The notes under the pieces were generated by a model. That model was not told where the DNA came from. It made no database searches and saw nothing but the letters and a program-made list of their open reading frames with translations. Positions 7,048-10,288 of a stretch of DNA of 11,941 bases are shown here, piece after piece; position 1 is the stretch's first letter, and each line of letters begins with the position of its first letter. This DNA is from a virus (Duplodnaviria > Heunggongvirae > Uroviricota > Caudoviricetes), in IMG/VR virus record IMGVR_UViG_2648501400_000008; one strand, 5' to 3'. Made by a program: the position numbers and the translations under genes.

Positions 7048-7308
7048 ATGCAATCACCATTACGGAATGTGCGTAAGGCGCACGGATTTACTTTGCAGCA
7101 TGTTGCTGCTGGCGTTCAGGTCAATCCAGCGACGCTGAGTCGTATTGAAAGACTGGAACAAATTCCATCTATCGATCTTGCAGAACGTCTGGCCAATTTT
7201 TTTAAGGGTGAAATCAGCGAAATGCAGATTCTTTATCCGGCACGTTTTCAATCTAGCCAAAACCAGAATGGGTTTAAACCACAGGAACAGGAGGTAAGCC
7301 GTGGGTAA
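7048..7308 (+). CDS. Cro-like XRE-family HTH regulator (86 aa)
   Basis: GGAGG ribosome-binding site at 7038-7042, 5 nt before the ATG; HTH segment FTLQHVAAGVQVNPATLSRIERLE; divergent from the cI-like gene across the operator region. Confidence 0.8.
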   Translation: MQSPLRNVRKAHGFTLQHVAAGVQVNPATLSRIERLEQIPSIDLAERLANFFKGEISEMQILYPARFQSSQNQNGFKPQEQEVSRG

Positions 7309-7858
7309 TCATCACTGGAAAGTGGAAAAACAGCCTGAGTGGTACGTGAAAGCTGTCAGAAAAACTATCGCGGCGTTGCCGGGGGGTTACGCTGAAGCTG
7401 CTGAGTGGCTGGATGTAACAGAGAACGCATTATTTAACCGCCTTCGTGCCGATGGCGATCAGATTTTCCCGCTGGGATGGGCAATGATTTTACAACGTGC
7501 TGGTGGCACTCACTTCATTGCCGACGCTGTGGCGCAGTCTGCAAATGGCGTCTTTGTGTCTCTTCCTGACGTCGAGGATGTGGACAATGCCGATATTAAC
7601 CAGCGTTTACTGGAAGTCATTGAACAGATCGGCAGTTATTCAAAACAGATTCGTTCGGCAATCGAAGACGGTGTAGTGGAACCGCATGAGAAGACAGCAA
7701 TTAACGACGAGCTGTACCTCTCAATTTCGAAGCTGCAGGAGCATGCAGCACTTGTCTACAAAATTTTTTGCGTTTCAGAAAGTAATGACGCCCGCGAGTG
7801 TGCAGCTCCGGGCGTCGTGGCGTCGATTGCTTCTGGTTGTGGAGAAACTAACGCATGA
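7301..7858 (+). CDS. Prophage early protein in the cII position (185 aa), YmfL-like by position and length
   Basis: GTG start with an AGGAGG site 6 nt upstream (7289-7294); overlaps the cro stop and is coupled to the next gene by ATGA (7855-7858). No catalytic motif recognised; the e14 YmfL comparison is from memory. Confidence 0.6.
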
Positions 7859-8193
7859 ACAGTTTAACAACACACTACCGTCGCTCGCAACTGATTGCGC
7901 TTCCTGTACCGGGTGGAAAAGCGAAGGTGGAGTATTGCTATGCAGTAAATGTACCAGGTGACAGGGAAATTGTAACCCACAGCTTTGCTGAGTGGGCTGT
8001 GGGGGATTTCAACCGGCAGAAGGAGACAGTCCTTTGCGACAAGTTAACCGCTGGTTCAAAGATCACTACGGAGTGCCCGTCAGAGTCATTCGTTGGGAGC
8101 CGGAAACACAACGGGTTATCTACCTCCGTGAAGGCTATGAGCATGAGTGCTTCAGCCCGCTCGAACAGTTTCGTCGTAAATTCAGGGAAATAG
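7855..8193 (+). CDS. Small prophage protein (112 aa), possibly YmfM-like (SOS-associated cell-division inhibitor family); C-terminal half uncertain
   Basis: ATG overlaps the upstream stop (ATGA). The N-terminal 45 aa look protein-like, but the C-terminal part is Ser-rich and low-complexity and overlaps a better-looking alternative frame (see findings). Confidence 0.45.
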
Positions 8194-8202
8194 AGGTCGG
8201 TC

Positions 8203-9144
8203 ATGAGCACTAAATTAACCGGCTATGTATGGGATGGTTGCGCTGCGTCAGGCATGAAATTATCCAGCGTGGCAATTATGGCCCGCCTGGCTGATTTCAG
8301 TAATGACGAAGGTGTGTGCTGGCCATCAATTGAAACCATTGCCCGCCAGATTGGCGCGGGGATGAGTACCGTCAGAACGGCTATCGCACGGCTGGAAGCA
8401 GAAGGCTGGTTAACGCGTAAGGCGCGTCGCCAGGGTAACCGCAATGCGTCGAATGTTTATCAGCTTAACGTTGCGAAGCTTCAGGCAGCGGCATTTTCTC
8501 AACTGTCAGATTCTGACCCGTCAAAATCTGACGCATCAAAATCTGACCCGTCAAAATTTGATGCGTCGAAATCTGGCAAAAAAGCGGGTTTTCACCCGTC
8601 AGAATCTGGCGGGGATCCGTCAGTAAAATCAAAACATGATCCGTCAGATAAAAAACCTTCTCGTCCGGACGCTTCGCAACCGGACACGCAGACGGCTGAA
8701 CAGGATTTTTTAACTCGCCATCCTGATGCGGTTGTATTCAGCCCTAAAAAGCGCCAGTGGGGAACGCAGGATGATTTGACCTGCGCACAGTGGCTCTGGA
8801 AAAAAATCATTGCCCTGTACGAGCAGGCCGCCGAATGTGACGGCGAGGTGGTTCGTCCCAAAGAACCGAACTGGACAGCCTGGGCAAACGAAATTCGCCT
8901 GATGTGTGTGCAGGATGGTCGTACTCACAAACAAATCTGCGAGATGTACAGCCGCGTCAGCCGCGATCCGTTCTGGTGCCGTAACGTGCTCAGCCCGTCG
9001 AAGCTGCGGGAAAAATGGGATGAGCTTTCCCTGCGCTTATCGCCGTCCATCAGCACATACACAGAAAAACGCGAAGACCCGTATTTCAAATCCAGTTACG
9101 ACAACGTGGACTACAGCCAGATCCCGGCAGGATTCAGGGGGTGA
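8203..9144 (+). CDS. Lambda O-like replication initiator (313 aa)
   Basis: N-terminal winged-HTH-like segment (…CWPSIETIARQIGAGMSTVRTAIARLEAEGWL…), a repeat-rich linker, and a C-terminus (…QWGTQDDLTCAQWLWKKI…NWTAWANEIRLMCVQDGRTHKQICEMYSRVSRDPFWCRNVLSPSKLREKWDEL) that matches the lambda O C-terminal domain as I recall it. GAGG ribosome-binding site 6 nt upstream. Confidence 0.85.
   Translation: MSTKLTGYVWDGCAASGMKLSSVAIMARLADFSNDEGVCWPSIETIARQIGAGMSTVRTAIARLEAEGWLTRKARRQGNRNASNVYQLNVAKLQAAAFSQLSDSDPSKSDASKSDPSKFDASKSGKKAGFHPSESGGDPSVKSKHDPSDKKPSRPDASQPDTQTAEQDFLTRHPDAVVFSPKKRQWGTQDDLTCAQWLWKKIIALYEQAAECDGEVVRPKEPNWTAWANEIRLMCVQDGRTHKQICEMYSRVSRDPFWCRNVLSPSKLREKWDELSLRLSPSISTYTEKREDPYFKSSYDNVDYSQIPAGFRG
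8503..8580. repeat. Tandem about-15-bp direct repeats (candidate replication-origin iterons) inside the O-like gene
   Basis: Consecutive units TCAAAATCTGACGCA / TCAAAATCTGACCCG / TCAAAATTTGATGCG / TCGAAATCTGGCAAA plus a diverged flanking copy, followed by more degenerate copies and an A/T-rich stretch (8620-8657). They encode the SKSD-repeat linker. Confidence 0.5.
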
Positions 9145-9146
9145 GC

Positions 9147-9635
9147 ATGAGTCTTTTGAATGACGTTCAGAAATTCATTGAAGCCCATCCGGGGTGTACT
9201 TCCGGAGACATTGCGGATGCTTTTGCAGGTTACTCACGGCAGCGCGTTCTGCAGTCTGCAAGCAAGTTACGTCAGAGTGGGCGTGTGGCTCACCGTTGTG
9301 AAGGAGATACACGCAGACATTTCCCGCGCCTGACTGAGAGAGCGCAGGAGCCGGAACCACAACCAGTTCGTGAAACCAGACCTGTGCGCAATTTCTATGT
9401 CGGCACTAACGATCCCCGGGTGATTTTGTGCCTGACCCGCCAGGCGGAAGAACTGGAGTCCAGGGGCTTATACCGTCGTGCTGCAACGGTGTGGATGGCG
9501 GCATTCCGTGAAAGCCACTCCCAGCCAGAACGAAACAATTTTCTGGCGCGTCGTGAACGGTGTTTACGGAAAAGCAGTAAGCGGGCTGCATCAGGTGAAG
9601 AGTGGTATCTCTCAGGGAATTACGTGGGGGCTTAA
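9147..9635 (+). CDS. PerC-family-like putative transcriptional regulator (162 aa from ATG 9147)
   Basis: AGGGGG ribosome-binding site 6 nt upstream of the ATG at 9147 (the ORF track uses the GTG at 9141). The C-terminal AEELESRGLYRRAATVWMAAF resembles the PerC/Pch motif as I recall it; the N-terminal part looks like a winged helix. Confidence 0.55.
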   Translation: MSLLNDVQKFIEAHPGCTSGDIADAFAGYSRQRVLQSASKLRQSGRVAHRCEGDTRRHFPRLTERAQEPEPQPVRETRPVRNFYVGTNDPRVILCLTRQAEELESRGLYRRAATVWMAAFRESHSQPERNNFLARRERCLRKSSKRAASGEEWYLSGNYVGA

Positions 9636-10288
9636 TGAGTAATAAATATTGCCAGGCGCTGGTGGAACTGCGGAACAAACCAGCCCATGAACTGAAGGAA
9701 GTGGGCGATCAGTGGCGCACGCCGGACAACATTTTCTGGGGAATTAACACCCTGTTTGGCCCGTTTGTTCTGGATCTGTTTACTGACGGTGATAACGCCA
9801 AATGTGCTGCGTATTACACGGCGGAAGACAACGCGCTGGCGCATGACTGGTCAGAACGTCTTGCGGAGCTTAAAGGTGCTGCCTTTGGTAATCCCCCATA
9901 CAGCCGCGCCAGTCAGCATGAGGGGCAATACATCACCGGCATGCGTTACATCATGAAGCATGCCAGTGCCATGCGTGATAAGGGCGGGCGCTATGTTTTC
10001 CTGATCAAAGCTGCCACCAGCGAAGTTTGGTGGCCGGAAGATGCAGACCATATTGCTTTTATTCGCGGGCGTATTGGTTTTGAACTGCCTGCCTGGTTTA
10101 TCCCGAAGGATGAGAAGCAGGTGCCGACAGGAGCGTTCTTCGCTGGTGCTATTGCTGTTTTCGACAAGACCTGGAAGGGACCGGCAATCAGCTACATCGG
10201 GCGCGATGAACTTGAGGCATGTGGTGAGGCGTTTCTGGCGCAGGTTCGCCAGCAGGCGGAAAAACTGGTCAGGGAGATGGCGGCATGA
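9635..10288 (+). CDS. Phage Dam-like DNA N6-adenine methyltransferase (217 aa from ATG 9635)
   Basis: Catalytic (D/N)PPY motif present as AFGNPPYSR; the start ATG overlaps the upstream stop (TAATG at 9633-9637); the stop overlaps the next start (ATGA). Confidence 0.85.
   Translation: MSNKYCQALVELRNKPAHELKEVGDQWRTPDNIFWGINTLFGPFVLDLFTDGDNAKCAAYYTAEDNALAHDWSERLAELKGAAFGNPPYSRASQHEGQYITGMRYIMKHASAMRDKGGRYVFLIKAATSEVWWPEDADHIAFIRGRIGFELPAWFIPKDEKQVPTGAFFAGAIAVFDKTWKGPAISYIGRDELEACGEAFLAQVRQQAEKLVREMAA

Follow-up and report, generated by a model that had tools for sequence, protein, structure and literature searches.

A candidate replication origin of lambda-like layout inside the initiator gene of an SfII/SfIV-type lambdoid prophage

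The replication origin of bacteriophage lambda lies inside gene O and comprises four 18-bp iterons (ITN1-4) and a 39-bp high-AT region (PMC6022878). Dimers of the O protein bind each dyad-symmetric iteron to form the O-some, which strains and opens the neighbouring AT-rich region; the C-terminal domain of O brings in the P-DnaB complex, and two iterons beside the AT-rich region suffice for unwinding (PMC6022878, PMC7466680). In the Shiga toxin (Stx) phages 933W and P27 the O gene carries six iterons, the number of iterons varies among relatives, and distal iterons are less important than those beside the AT-rich region (PMC7466680). Here we describe an element of similar layout in an 11,941-nucleotide stretch of viral DNA (IMG/VR record IMGVR_UViG_2648501400_000008, Caudoviricetes; hereafter the window), which is the early region of a lambdoid prophage. 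The element occupies positions 8503-8660, within an O-like replication initiator gene of 313 amino acids (8203-9144, plus strand). From the sequence evidence presented below, we consider it very likely to be the cis-acting replication origin of an SfII/SfIV/CPS-53-type lambdoid prophage, situated in the linker-coding part of its own initiator gene. The comparisons with relatives show the repeats to be a constrained cis element that is specific to the N-terminal domain of the initiator and arranged as in lambda.

The identity of the initiator was examined using Pfam, PHROG, BLASTP, and AlphaFold2. The protein matches PHROG 391 ("replication initiation O-like", E = 1.5e-135) and aligns with lambda O by BLASTP (8e-26), with 39% identity over residues 166-277; its C-terminal domain is also 35% identical to phi80 gp15. 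Residues 23-70 belong to the Pfam family HTH_36 (PF13730, 4.3e-11), and there was no match of the protein to PF04492 (Phage_rep_O), which lambda O matches at 5.7e-36. By these comparisons the initiator is an O analogue with a swapped DNA-binding domain. The change of Pfam family in the N-terminal domain, to HTH_36 from Phage_rep_O, accounts for iterons that are unlike those of lambda. An AlphaFold2 model of medium confidence, based on 26 homologues (mean predicted local distance difference test score 68), comprised a winged helix at residues 1-101, a disordered linker at 102-158, and a helical C-domain at 165-280, with a predicted recognition helix at residues 54-66 and a wing at 70-88; the protein ends in a conserved C-terminal tail. 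In fold and solved-structure searches the N-domain matched generic MarR-like winged helices alone, and the C-domain gave no informative match. Disordered residues 102-158 correspond to nucleotides 8506-8676, which is the repeat element, and positions 8503-8660 make up codons 101-153, between the N-domain and the C-domain.

Tandem Repeats Finder identified 8512-8575 as the top-scoring repeat of the window (period 15, 4.3 copies, score 86; score 100 at period 30), with all remaining repeats scoring 55 or less. Using this output together with register, dyad symmetry, codon phase, and comparison with relatives, we delimited five abutting 15-bp iterons at 8503-8577, which start at 8503 (CTGTCAGATTCTGAC), 8518 (CCGTCAAAATCTGAC), 8533 (GCATCAAAATCTGAC), 8548 (CCGTCAAAATTTGAT), and 8563 (GCGTCGAAATCTGGC) and represent putative binding sites for dimers of the initiator N-domain. 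A sixth iteron (CCGTCAGAATCTGGC, 8596-8610) stands apart from the array, next to an A-rich segment. Each of the six units starts in codon phase 0, and their translations follow the pattern (L/P/A)S(D/K/E)(S/F)(D/G). Their 13-bp core, GTCA(A/G)A(A/T)TCTGAC (GTCAGAaTCTGAC), is dyad-symmetric and absent elsewhere in the window; individual cores agree with their reverse complement at between 6 and 12 of the 13 positions, and GTCAGATTCTGAC scores highest (12/13). When up to two mismatches were allowed, the pattern GTCARAATCTGRC occurred at six places, all within 8505-8610, and gave nine matches over both strands, compared with an expectation of 1.03 from shuffled sequence; none of 200 shuffles reached nine.

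The sequence-only reading that preceded this analysis had proposed four to five tandem 15-bp units encoding an SKSD-repeat linker. The tandem 15-bp units are confirmed, while their count and start required correction: the array begins at 8503, one unit before the 8521 given earlier, and consists of five contiguous units, a separated one, and two half-units. The coding assignment also held, as (P/A)SKSD repeats fall in the predicted disordered residues 102-158. Among natural variants the copy number changes in whole units and ranges from about 1 to about 10, much as lambda has four iterons and the Stx phages six. A 303-residue variant is without two units, 318- and 323-residue variants gain one or two, Klebsiella forms have approximately ten, and forms of 282 and 287 residues are left with one or two after apparent deletion between iterons. 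In the variants P0015, P0016, P0018, P0029, P0033, and P0063, most iterons were lost in frame and 1-2 units remain; such collapsed-array forms may be origin-defective cryptic prophages.

We collected 80 related loci, taking one genome per species, and defined a close set of 34 non-identical genes with an N-domain at least 76% identical to that of the window, from Escherichia, Shigella, Citrobacter, Enterobacter, Kosakonia, Buttiauxella, Pantoea, Providencia, Yersinia, Tatumella, Rosenbergiella, and Erwinia. All 34 carry the 15-bp unit of the window in unchanged phase, in 2.5 to 9 copies. Codon use was counted for every linker codon by position, independent of motif match. Serine codons TCT/TCC/TCA/TCG/AGT/AGC occurred 116/19/156/20/2/13 times in the linker compared with 57/108/109/66/80/202 times in the rest of the genes (p = 2e-60, a value that ignores kinship), and lysine codons AAA/AAG 130/2 compared with 291/183 times. 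Third-position identity, calculated as the mean pairwise value in a codon alignment of 35 sequences, was about 0.45 in the N-domain (0.26-0.59 across codons 6-100), 0.61-0.92 across 8503-8667, and approximately 0.4 from 8683 onward. The peak of 0.92 lay at 8593-8607, at the sixth iteron, which is the best conserved unit and reads as a near-invariant CAGAATCTGG across the 35 sequences. Furthermore, the non-repetitive block at 8590-8650 is nearly invariant across genera (TTTT.ACCCgtCAGAATCTGG.GGgGATCCGTCAGTAAatTCAA.ac..GATCCatcAg..Aaaaaa), and because this block is unique, concerted evolution of a repeat cannot account for its conservation. Taken together, the codon counts and the alignment show that the element is constrained beyond its coding role.

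Several features lie outside the array. An 18-bp spacer (AAAAAAGCGGGTTTTCAC, 8578-8595) with an A6 tract and a T4 tract separates the fifth and sixth iterons; its TTTT.AC part is conserved in the consensus of the 35 sequences, and the spacer possibly introduces a bend. The left arm of a minus-strand hairpin at 8598-8585 was not conserved among relatives. To the right of the sixth iteron are two boxes that each combine GATC with the half-iteron CCGTCAG. Box 1 (8614-8623) shares one base between its GATC and the half-iteron at 8617, box 2 (8638-8647; half-iteron at 8641) follows 24 bp later, and a run of A residues follows each box. The aspartate codon of box 1 is GAT in all 35 sequences, compared with a GAT:GAC ratio of approximately 51:49 over the remainder of these genes. 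Two or more GATC sites occur in 32 of the 35 sequences, and 31 of those 32 keep the 24-bp spacing. The two conserved sites may allow methylation or SeqA to control origin firing. A phage Dam methylase gene is located approximately 1 kb downstream of the GATC sites here and in 15 of 34 relatives; in SfIV, the methylase is absent and the GATC sites are retained.

Both boxes lie in the A-rich, least stable segment at 8614-8660 (A-rich on the coding strand), which is a candidate DNA-unwinding element. Over 8613-8660 the A+T content is 62%, and A alone makes up 42% of the top strand; over 8620-8659 the A+T content reaches 70%, the maximum for the gene. The gene's least stable 40-mer begins at 8622, with a free energy of -47.0 compared with a gene mean of -57.0 and a standard deviation of 3.3, a difference of approximately 3 standard deviations. 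The A/T-rich stretch that the sequence-only reading had placed after the repeats is real, if modest. Features beyond those it had described are the sixth unit, which is also the best conserved, the pair of conserved GATC boxes, and the lack of a P-like loader. A search of 7800-9400 for DnaA boxes returned three matches to TTWTNCACA with one mismatch, none of them adjacent to the element.

A tandem array with units of 13-26 bp was present at the equivalent place in 71 of 83 O-like genes. Identity between units followed identity between N-domains: at N-domain identities of at least 70% it was 0.86-0.88, at 45-70% it was 0.55, and below 45% it fell to the background of 0.37 (Spearman 0.69 across the 71 genes with an array, ignoring kinship). 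Two phages separate the contributions of the two domains. The C-domain of mEp460_4F5 is 98.6% identical to that of the window and is accompanied by a different N-domain and 23-bp repeats of the GGTCAAAATGAC type, while phiNP combines an unrelated C-domain with the same N-domain and the same units as the window. These comparisons show that the repeat unit tracks the N-terminal winged-helix domain and not the C-domain. In a three-way alignment with these two phages, the window matches phiNP up to approximately 8681 and mEp460_4F5 from approximately 8648. This defines a junction zone at 8648-8681, just right of the A-rich segment, between a module of N-domain and origin and the C-domain module, with the stretch CTTCTCGTCCGGACGCTTCGCAACC (8656-8680) shared at the junction. 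The element and the N-domain are thus shown, at the level of the alignment, to be inherited as one mosaic module.

Other lineages have units of 22-23 bp with 13-14-bp dyads of like design, such as CCGCAGAATCGCGG, CGGCTCTTAAGCCG, and GGACAATCTGTCC; at these periods the repeats exist in the DNA and are unable to encode a peptide repeat. In a sister group with N-domains approximately 62% identical to those of the window group, the units read CCCCCCAAnnATTGA. The two groups are separated by fixed differences in 23 of 101 alignment columns. Eight of these are at window residues 53-55, 58, 59, 62, and 66, at the start of or along the predicted recognition helix, and further fixed differences fall in the predicted wing. 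In lineages with 23-bp iterons (L003 2476-2513, L016, L042, L046-48, L050, L055), the iterons are followed by 3 to 5 tandem copies of another repeat, ACAGAGAATACA, which is 12 bp long and A/T-rich. It takes the position of the GATC and A-rich boxes of the window group and may be an alternative unwinding element.

We considered whether the repeats might be merely a low-complexity coding linker generated by replication slippage, with no cis function in the DNA and with the origin elsewhere or another mechanism in use. Such an account fits a region that encodes a predicted disordered linker, in units whose length is a multiple of three and whose whole-unit copy variation in close relatives is what slippage gives, and the A/T richness is modest. 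It is difficult to reconcile with synonymous positions that are far more conserved than those of the flanking structured N-domain, with serine and lysine codons locked to TCA/TCT/AAA, or with the near invariance across genera of the non-repetitive 8590-8650 and its two GATC sites. Moreover, the 22-23-bp repeats of sister lineages exist in DNA and not in protein, the unit changes together with the N-domain, and the window showed neither a further replication gene nor another origin-like element; we regard the coding-linker account as very improbable. Synonymous constraint could also come from a structured RNA or a second gene that overlaps the element, on one strand or the other, and mechanically called open reading frames at 8444-8626 (plus), 8465-8632 (minus), and 8592-8861 (minus) do overlap the region. 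No alternative frame is open in all 35 sequences, however: the best, an antisense frame that is stop-free in 17, is interrupted in the other 18. Rfam gave no match in the window, promoter and terminator signals inside the element did not exceed shuffle expectation, and the spacer hairpin is not conserved. As an overlapping gene or RNA would also leave the covariation with the N-domain unexplained, it is an extremely improbable source of the constraint.

A rival closer to our own interpretation is that the repeats bind their own N-domain for regulation rather than for firing, through autoregulation or a roadblock in the early operon, copy control or handcuffing, or the exclusion of related phages. 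Covariation and constraint indicate recognition of the DNA only, and not its consequence. Plasmid iterons are generally known to serve in copy control as well as in initiation. Cloned lambda ori/O fragments are reported to inhibit related phages (PMC3349717). Against a purely regulatory role stand the conserved, least stable A-rich segment that follows the sites, as in ori-lambda, and an initiator C-domain of the lambda O type, for which the known role is replisome recruitment (PMC6022878). No other candidate initiator or origin was seen in the region, and regulation and origin function are not mutually exclusive. We hold an exclusively regulatory role to be improbable.

Several points nevertheless weigh against identifying the element as the origin. 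The codon-use and covariation statistics ignore phylogeny, and mosaic recombination could inflate local conservation. The 15-bp period places the dyads 2 bp apart and on different helical faces, compared with a spacing of 20-24 bp in lambda. The A-rich segment is modest, at 62-70% A+T compared with 77% in lambda, and 8.6% of the 40-mers in the window are less stable. The literature that we searched contained no report of binding, unwinding, or autonomous replication for the element at 8503-8660. Lastly, the helicase-loading step is conjecture because no P-like loader or helicase gene is present.

With the element taken as an origin, initiation may be outlined by analogy with ori-lambda. Transcription from the early rightward promoter would allow expression of the initiator, dimers of its N-domain would bind the 13-bp dyads of the six iterons to form a nucleoprotein complex like the lambda O-some, and this complex would destabilise the adjacent A-rich segment at 8614-8660. 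The boxes of GATC and half-iteron could then support further initiator binding on the opened DNA or, by analogy with oriC and P1 oriR, make firing sensitive to Dam and SeqA; GATC in the unwinding region is a feature of the oriC 13-mers and of P1 oriR. Finally, the lambda-O-like C-domain or the C-terminal tail would recruit the host DnaB helicase, probably via host DnaC or by direct contact, as no P-like loader is encoded.

Within the window, no gene for a loader or helicase was found. The PerC-like gene directly downstream of the initiator gene (9141-9635) was considered as a diverged lambda P and rejected, since it has no similarity to P and NCBIfam and Pfam give only PerC/ANR and helix-turn-helix signals. 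A lambda-P-like gene was present in none of the 34 relatives with the window-type N-domain, while 8 other loci have one; a P-like gene is present downstream of the genes of the sister group. The "P position" is filled by a small helix-turn-helix/PerC-like gene or directly by a Dam-type methylase. The C-terminal tail of the initiator (VDYSQIPAGFRG, residues 302-313, encoded at 9106-9141 on the plus strand) may take the place of P by recruiting a host factor. A tail of the form [IV]PxGFRG was observed at 26 loci (approximately 33 when GFRS and GFRC variants are included), on several unrelated C-domain bodies (L001-L056). It never occurs on the 8 initiators with a lambda-P-like gene downstream, which end in ...WNSPEAWENTL or similar, and a third class of tail reads WNxIWxE..QR. 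Many phages that differ elsewhere, including SfV, mEp460, and Stx2 phages, share the last 76 nucleotides of the initiator gene at 94-96% identity.

A bolder combination of these features may be drawn, although we consider it unlikely. The locus would then be a loader-less variant of ori-lambda in which the lambda-O-type C-domain was kept, the P partner was lost, and the [IV]PxGFRG peptide recruits the host helicase. Firing would be gated by Dam and SeqA at the two GATC and half-iteron boxes, 24 bp apart inside the unwinding element, and the abutting 15-bp iterons would give rise to a continuous initiator filament, unlike the spaced lambda O-some.

The surrounding genes follow the order of a lambdoid early region. 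A CI-like repressor is encoded at 6258-6950 on the minus strand, followed by Cro-like (7048-7308), CII-like (7301-7858), and DUF4222 (7855-8193) proteins ahead of the initiator gene. Beyond the PerC-like gene are a Dam methylase (9602-10288) and then a LexA-like repressor, RusA, and a regulator. The leftward early region includes an open reading frame at 337-1932 (minus strand, 531 residues) that gives a full-length match to PHROG 9198 (unknown function) and resembles dCMP deaminase in its centre (residues 235-456, E = 8e-23); the gene next to it, at 3640-4203, is dNMP phosphatase-like.

With the initiator genes of the Shigella phages SfIV and SfII, the window gene shares 99% and 98.5% identity, respectively, and at least 80% of it was found in 1,576 of 5,426 complete E. 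coli genomes. In E. coli ECGI0523 and ECDA1023 (L005/L006, L052/L056), the O-like gene is broken at codon 79, and codons 1-79 and 79-313 lie approximately 1.2 Mb apart on the chromosome, as would be expected if a rearrangement had broken the gene internally. Two phage-sized circular records that carry the module, NZ_CP081716.1 (37,667 bp) and CP085522.1 (41,492 bp), were deposited as E. coli plasmids; the former has no replicon type in PLSDB, and the features seen in it are phage genes. In both cases assembly may have captured a phage genome that was excised or replicating. We considered plasmid records with the module as support for autonomous replication and set them aside as weak evidence, since they are whole phage genomes or very large records. 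None of the three records that we opened (SfIV, phiNP, and mEp460_4F5) has an annotated origin, and the SfIV genome paper mentions only a "replication module" and no origin. We found no description of an origin for the SfII/SfIV/SfV/CPS-53 group in the literature searched, though an earlier one may exist.

The element thus provides a concrete candidate origin for a very common E. coli and Shigella prophage family that includes the serotype-converting phages SfII and SfIV. The natural series of N-domain and iteron pairs, with at least five or six specificities, offers material for the study of how winged-helix initiators read their sites, and a C-domain of the lambda O type that works without P would inform the question of host helicase recruitment by phages. 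Origins located in gene O are already known for lambda (PMC6022878) and for Stx phages (PMC7466680), and the textbook picture is unchanged; the ori-lambda design would be extended to another family of DNA-binding domains.

Comparison with ori-lambda supports the position proposed in the sequence-only reading. In both phages the origin or candidate origin lies inside the initiator gene, between a DNA-binding N-domain and a C-domain, in a region that encodes a flexible linker. Internally dyad-symmetric direct repeats (gene nucleotides 301-408 here, 349-433 for the lambda iterons) come after the N-domain, and next to them on the same side lies an A-rich segment containing the least stable 40-mer, which by the same measure starts at 8622 here and at 39122 in lambda O, inside the known high-AT region. 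The C-domains are homologous (39% identity over residues 166-277), in line with the earlier description of the gene as O-like, and both genes are within a cI-cro-cII early operon. The differences are also clear. As had been noted, the iteron sequence is not that of lambda (ATCCCTCAAAACGAGGGA there, GTCAGAaTCTGAC here), and the N-domain is Phage_rep_O in lambda and HTH_36 here. Lambda has four units, here there are six arranged as 5+1; its A-rich part is 77% A+T and contains no GATC, compared with 62-70% and two conserved sites here; and lambda has a P gene, which is lacking here. The comparison with ori-lambda and related phages that had been suggested as a check yielded constraint beyond coding, covariation with the N-domain, and a shared layout. 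Right of the high-AT region of lambda, at 39159-39194 (L084 860-895), the sequence TTCGTCAGAGAATTCTGGCGAATCCTCTGAC resembles the window iteron CCGTCAGAATCTGGCG (8596-8612), and the Providencia relatives L013, L015, and L017 have TCGTCGCAGAATTCT(G/A)(A/G)CGAATCC after the A-rich part. The likeness of TTCGTCAGAGAATTCTGGCGAATCCTCTGAC to CCGTCAGAATCTGGCG may be a vestige of shared linker ancestry, or it may be due to chance.

The Stx phages have the same layout, and in line with the lesser importance of their distal iterons, the best conserved unit of the present element is the one beside the A-rich part; the Stx phages differ in having a Phage_rep_O N-domain, lambda-type iterons, and a P protein, with only the C-domain matching (39%). 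The origins of phi80 and P22 also lie within the initiator gene. The C-domain of phi80 gene 15 is 35% identical to that of the window protein, whereas its N-domain is not detectably similar, and one relative of the window protein was named "Replication protein 15" by its source. Plasmid iteron origins (P1 oriR, F, R6K, RK2, and pSC101) and oriC share with this locus a winged-helix initiator, direct-repeat arrays, and an adjacent AT-rich unwinding element. Plasmid iterons, by contrast, lie between genes and are typically 17-22 bp long with a period of approximately 22 bp, the Rep proteins of plasmids contain WH1 and WH2 domains in tandem, and DnaA boxes are usual in plasmid origins, whereas no good box was seen in or near the element. 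Collectively, these comparisons suggest that the locus very probably follows the expected design of ori-lambda, and that what distinguishes it is the lack of a phage-encoded helicase loader, the sequence of the repeats, and the DNA-binding domain that would read them.

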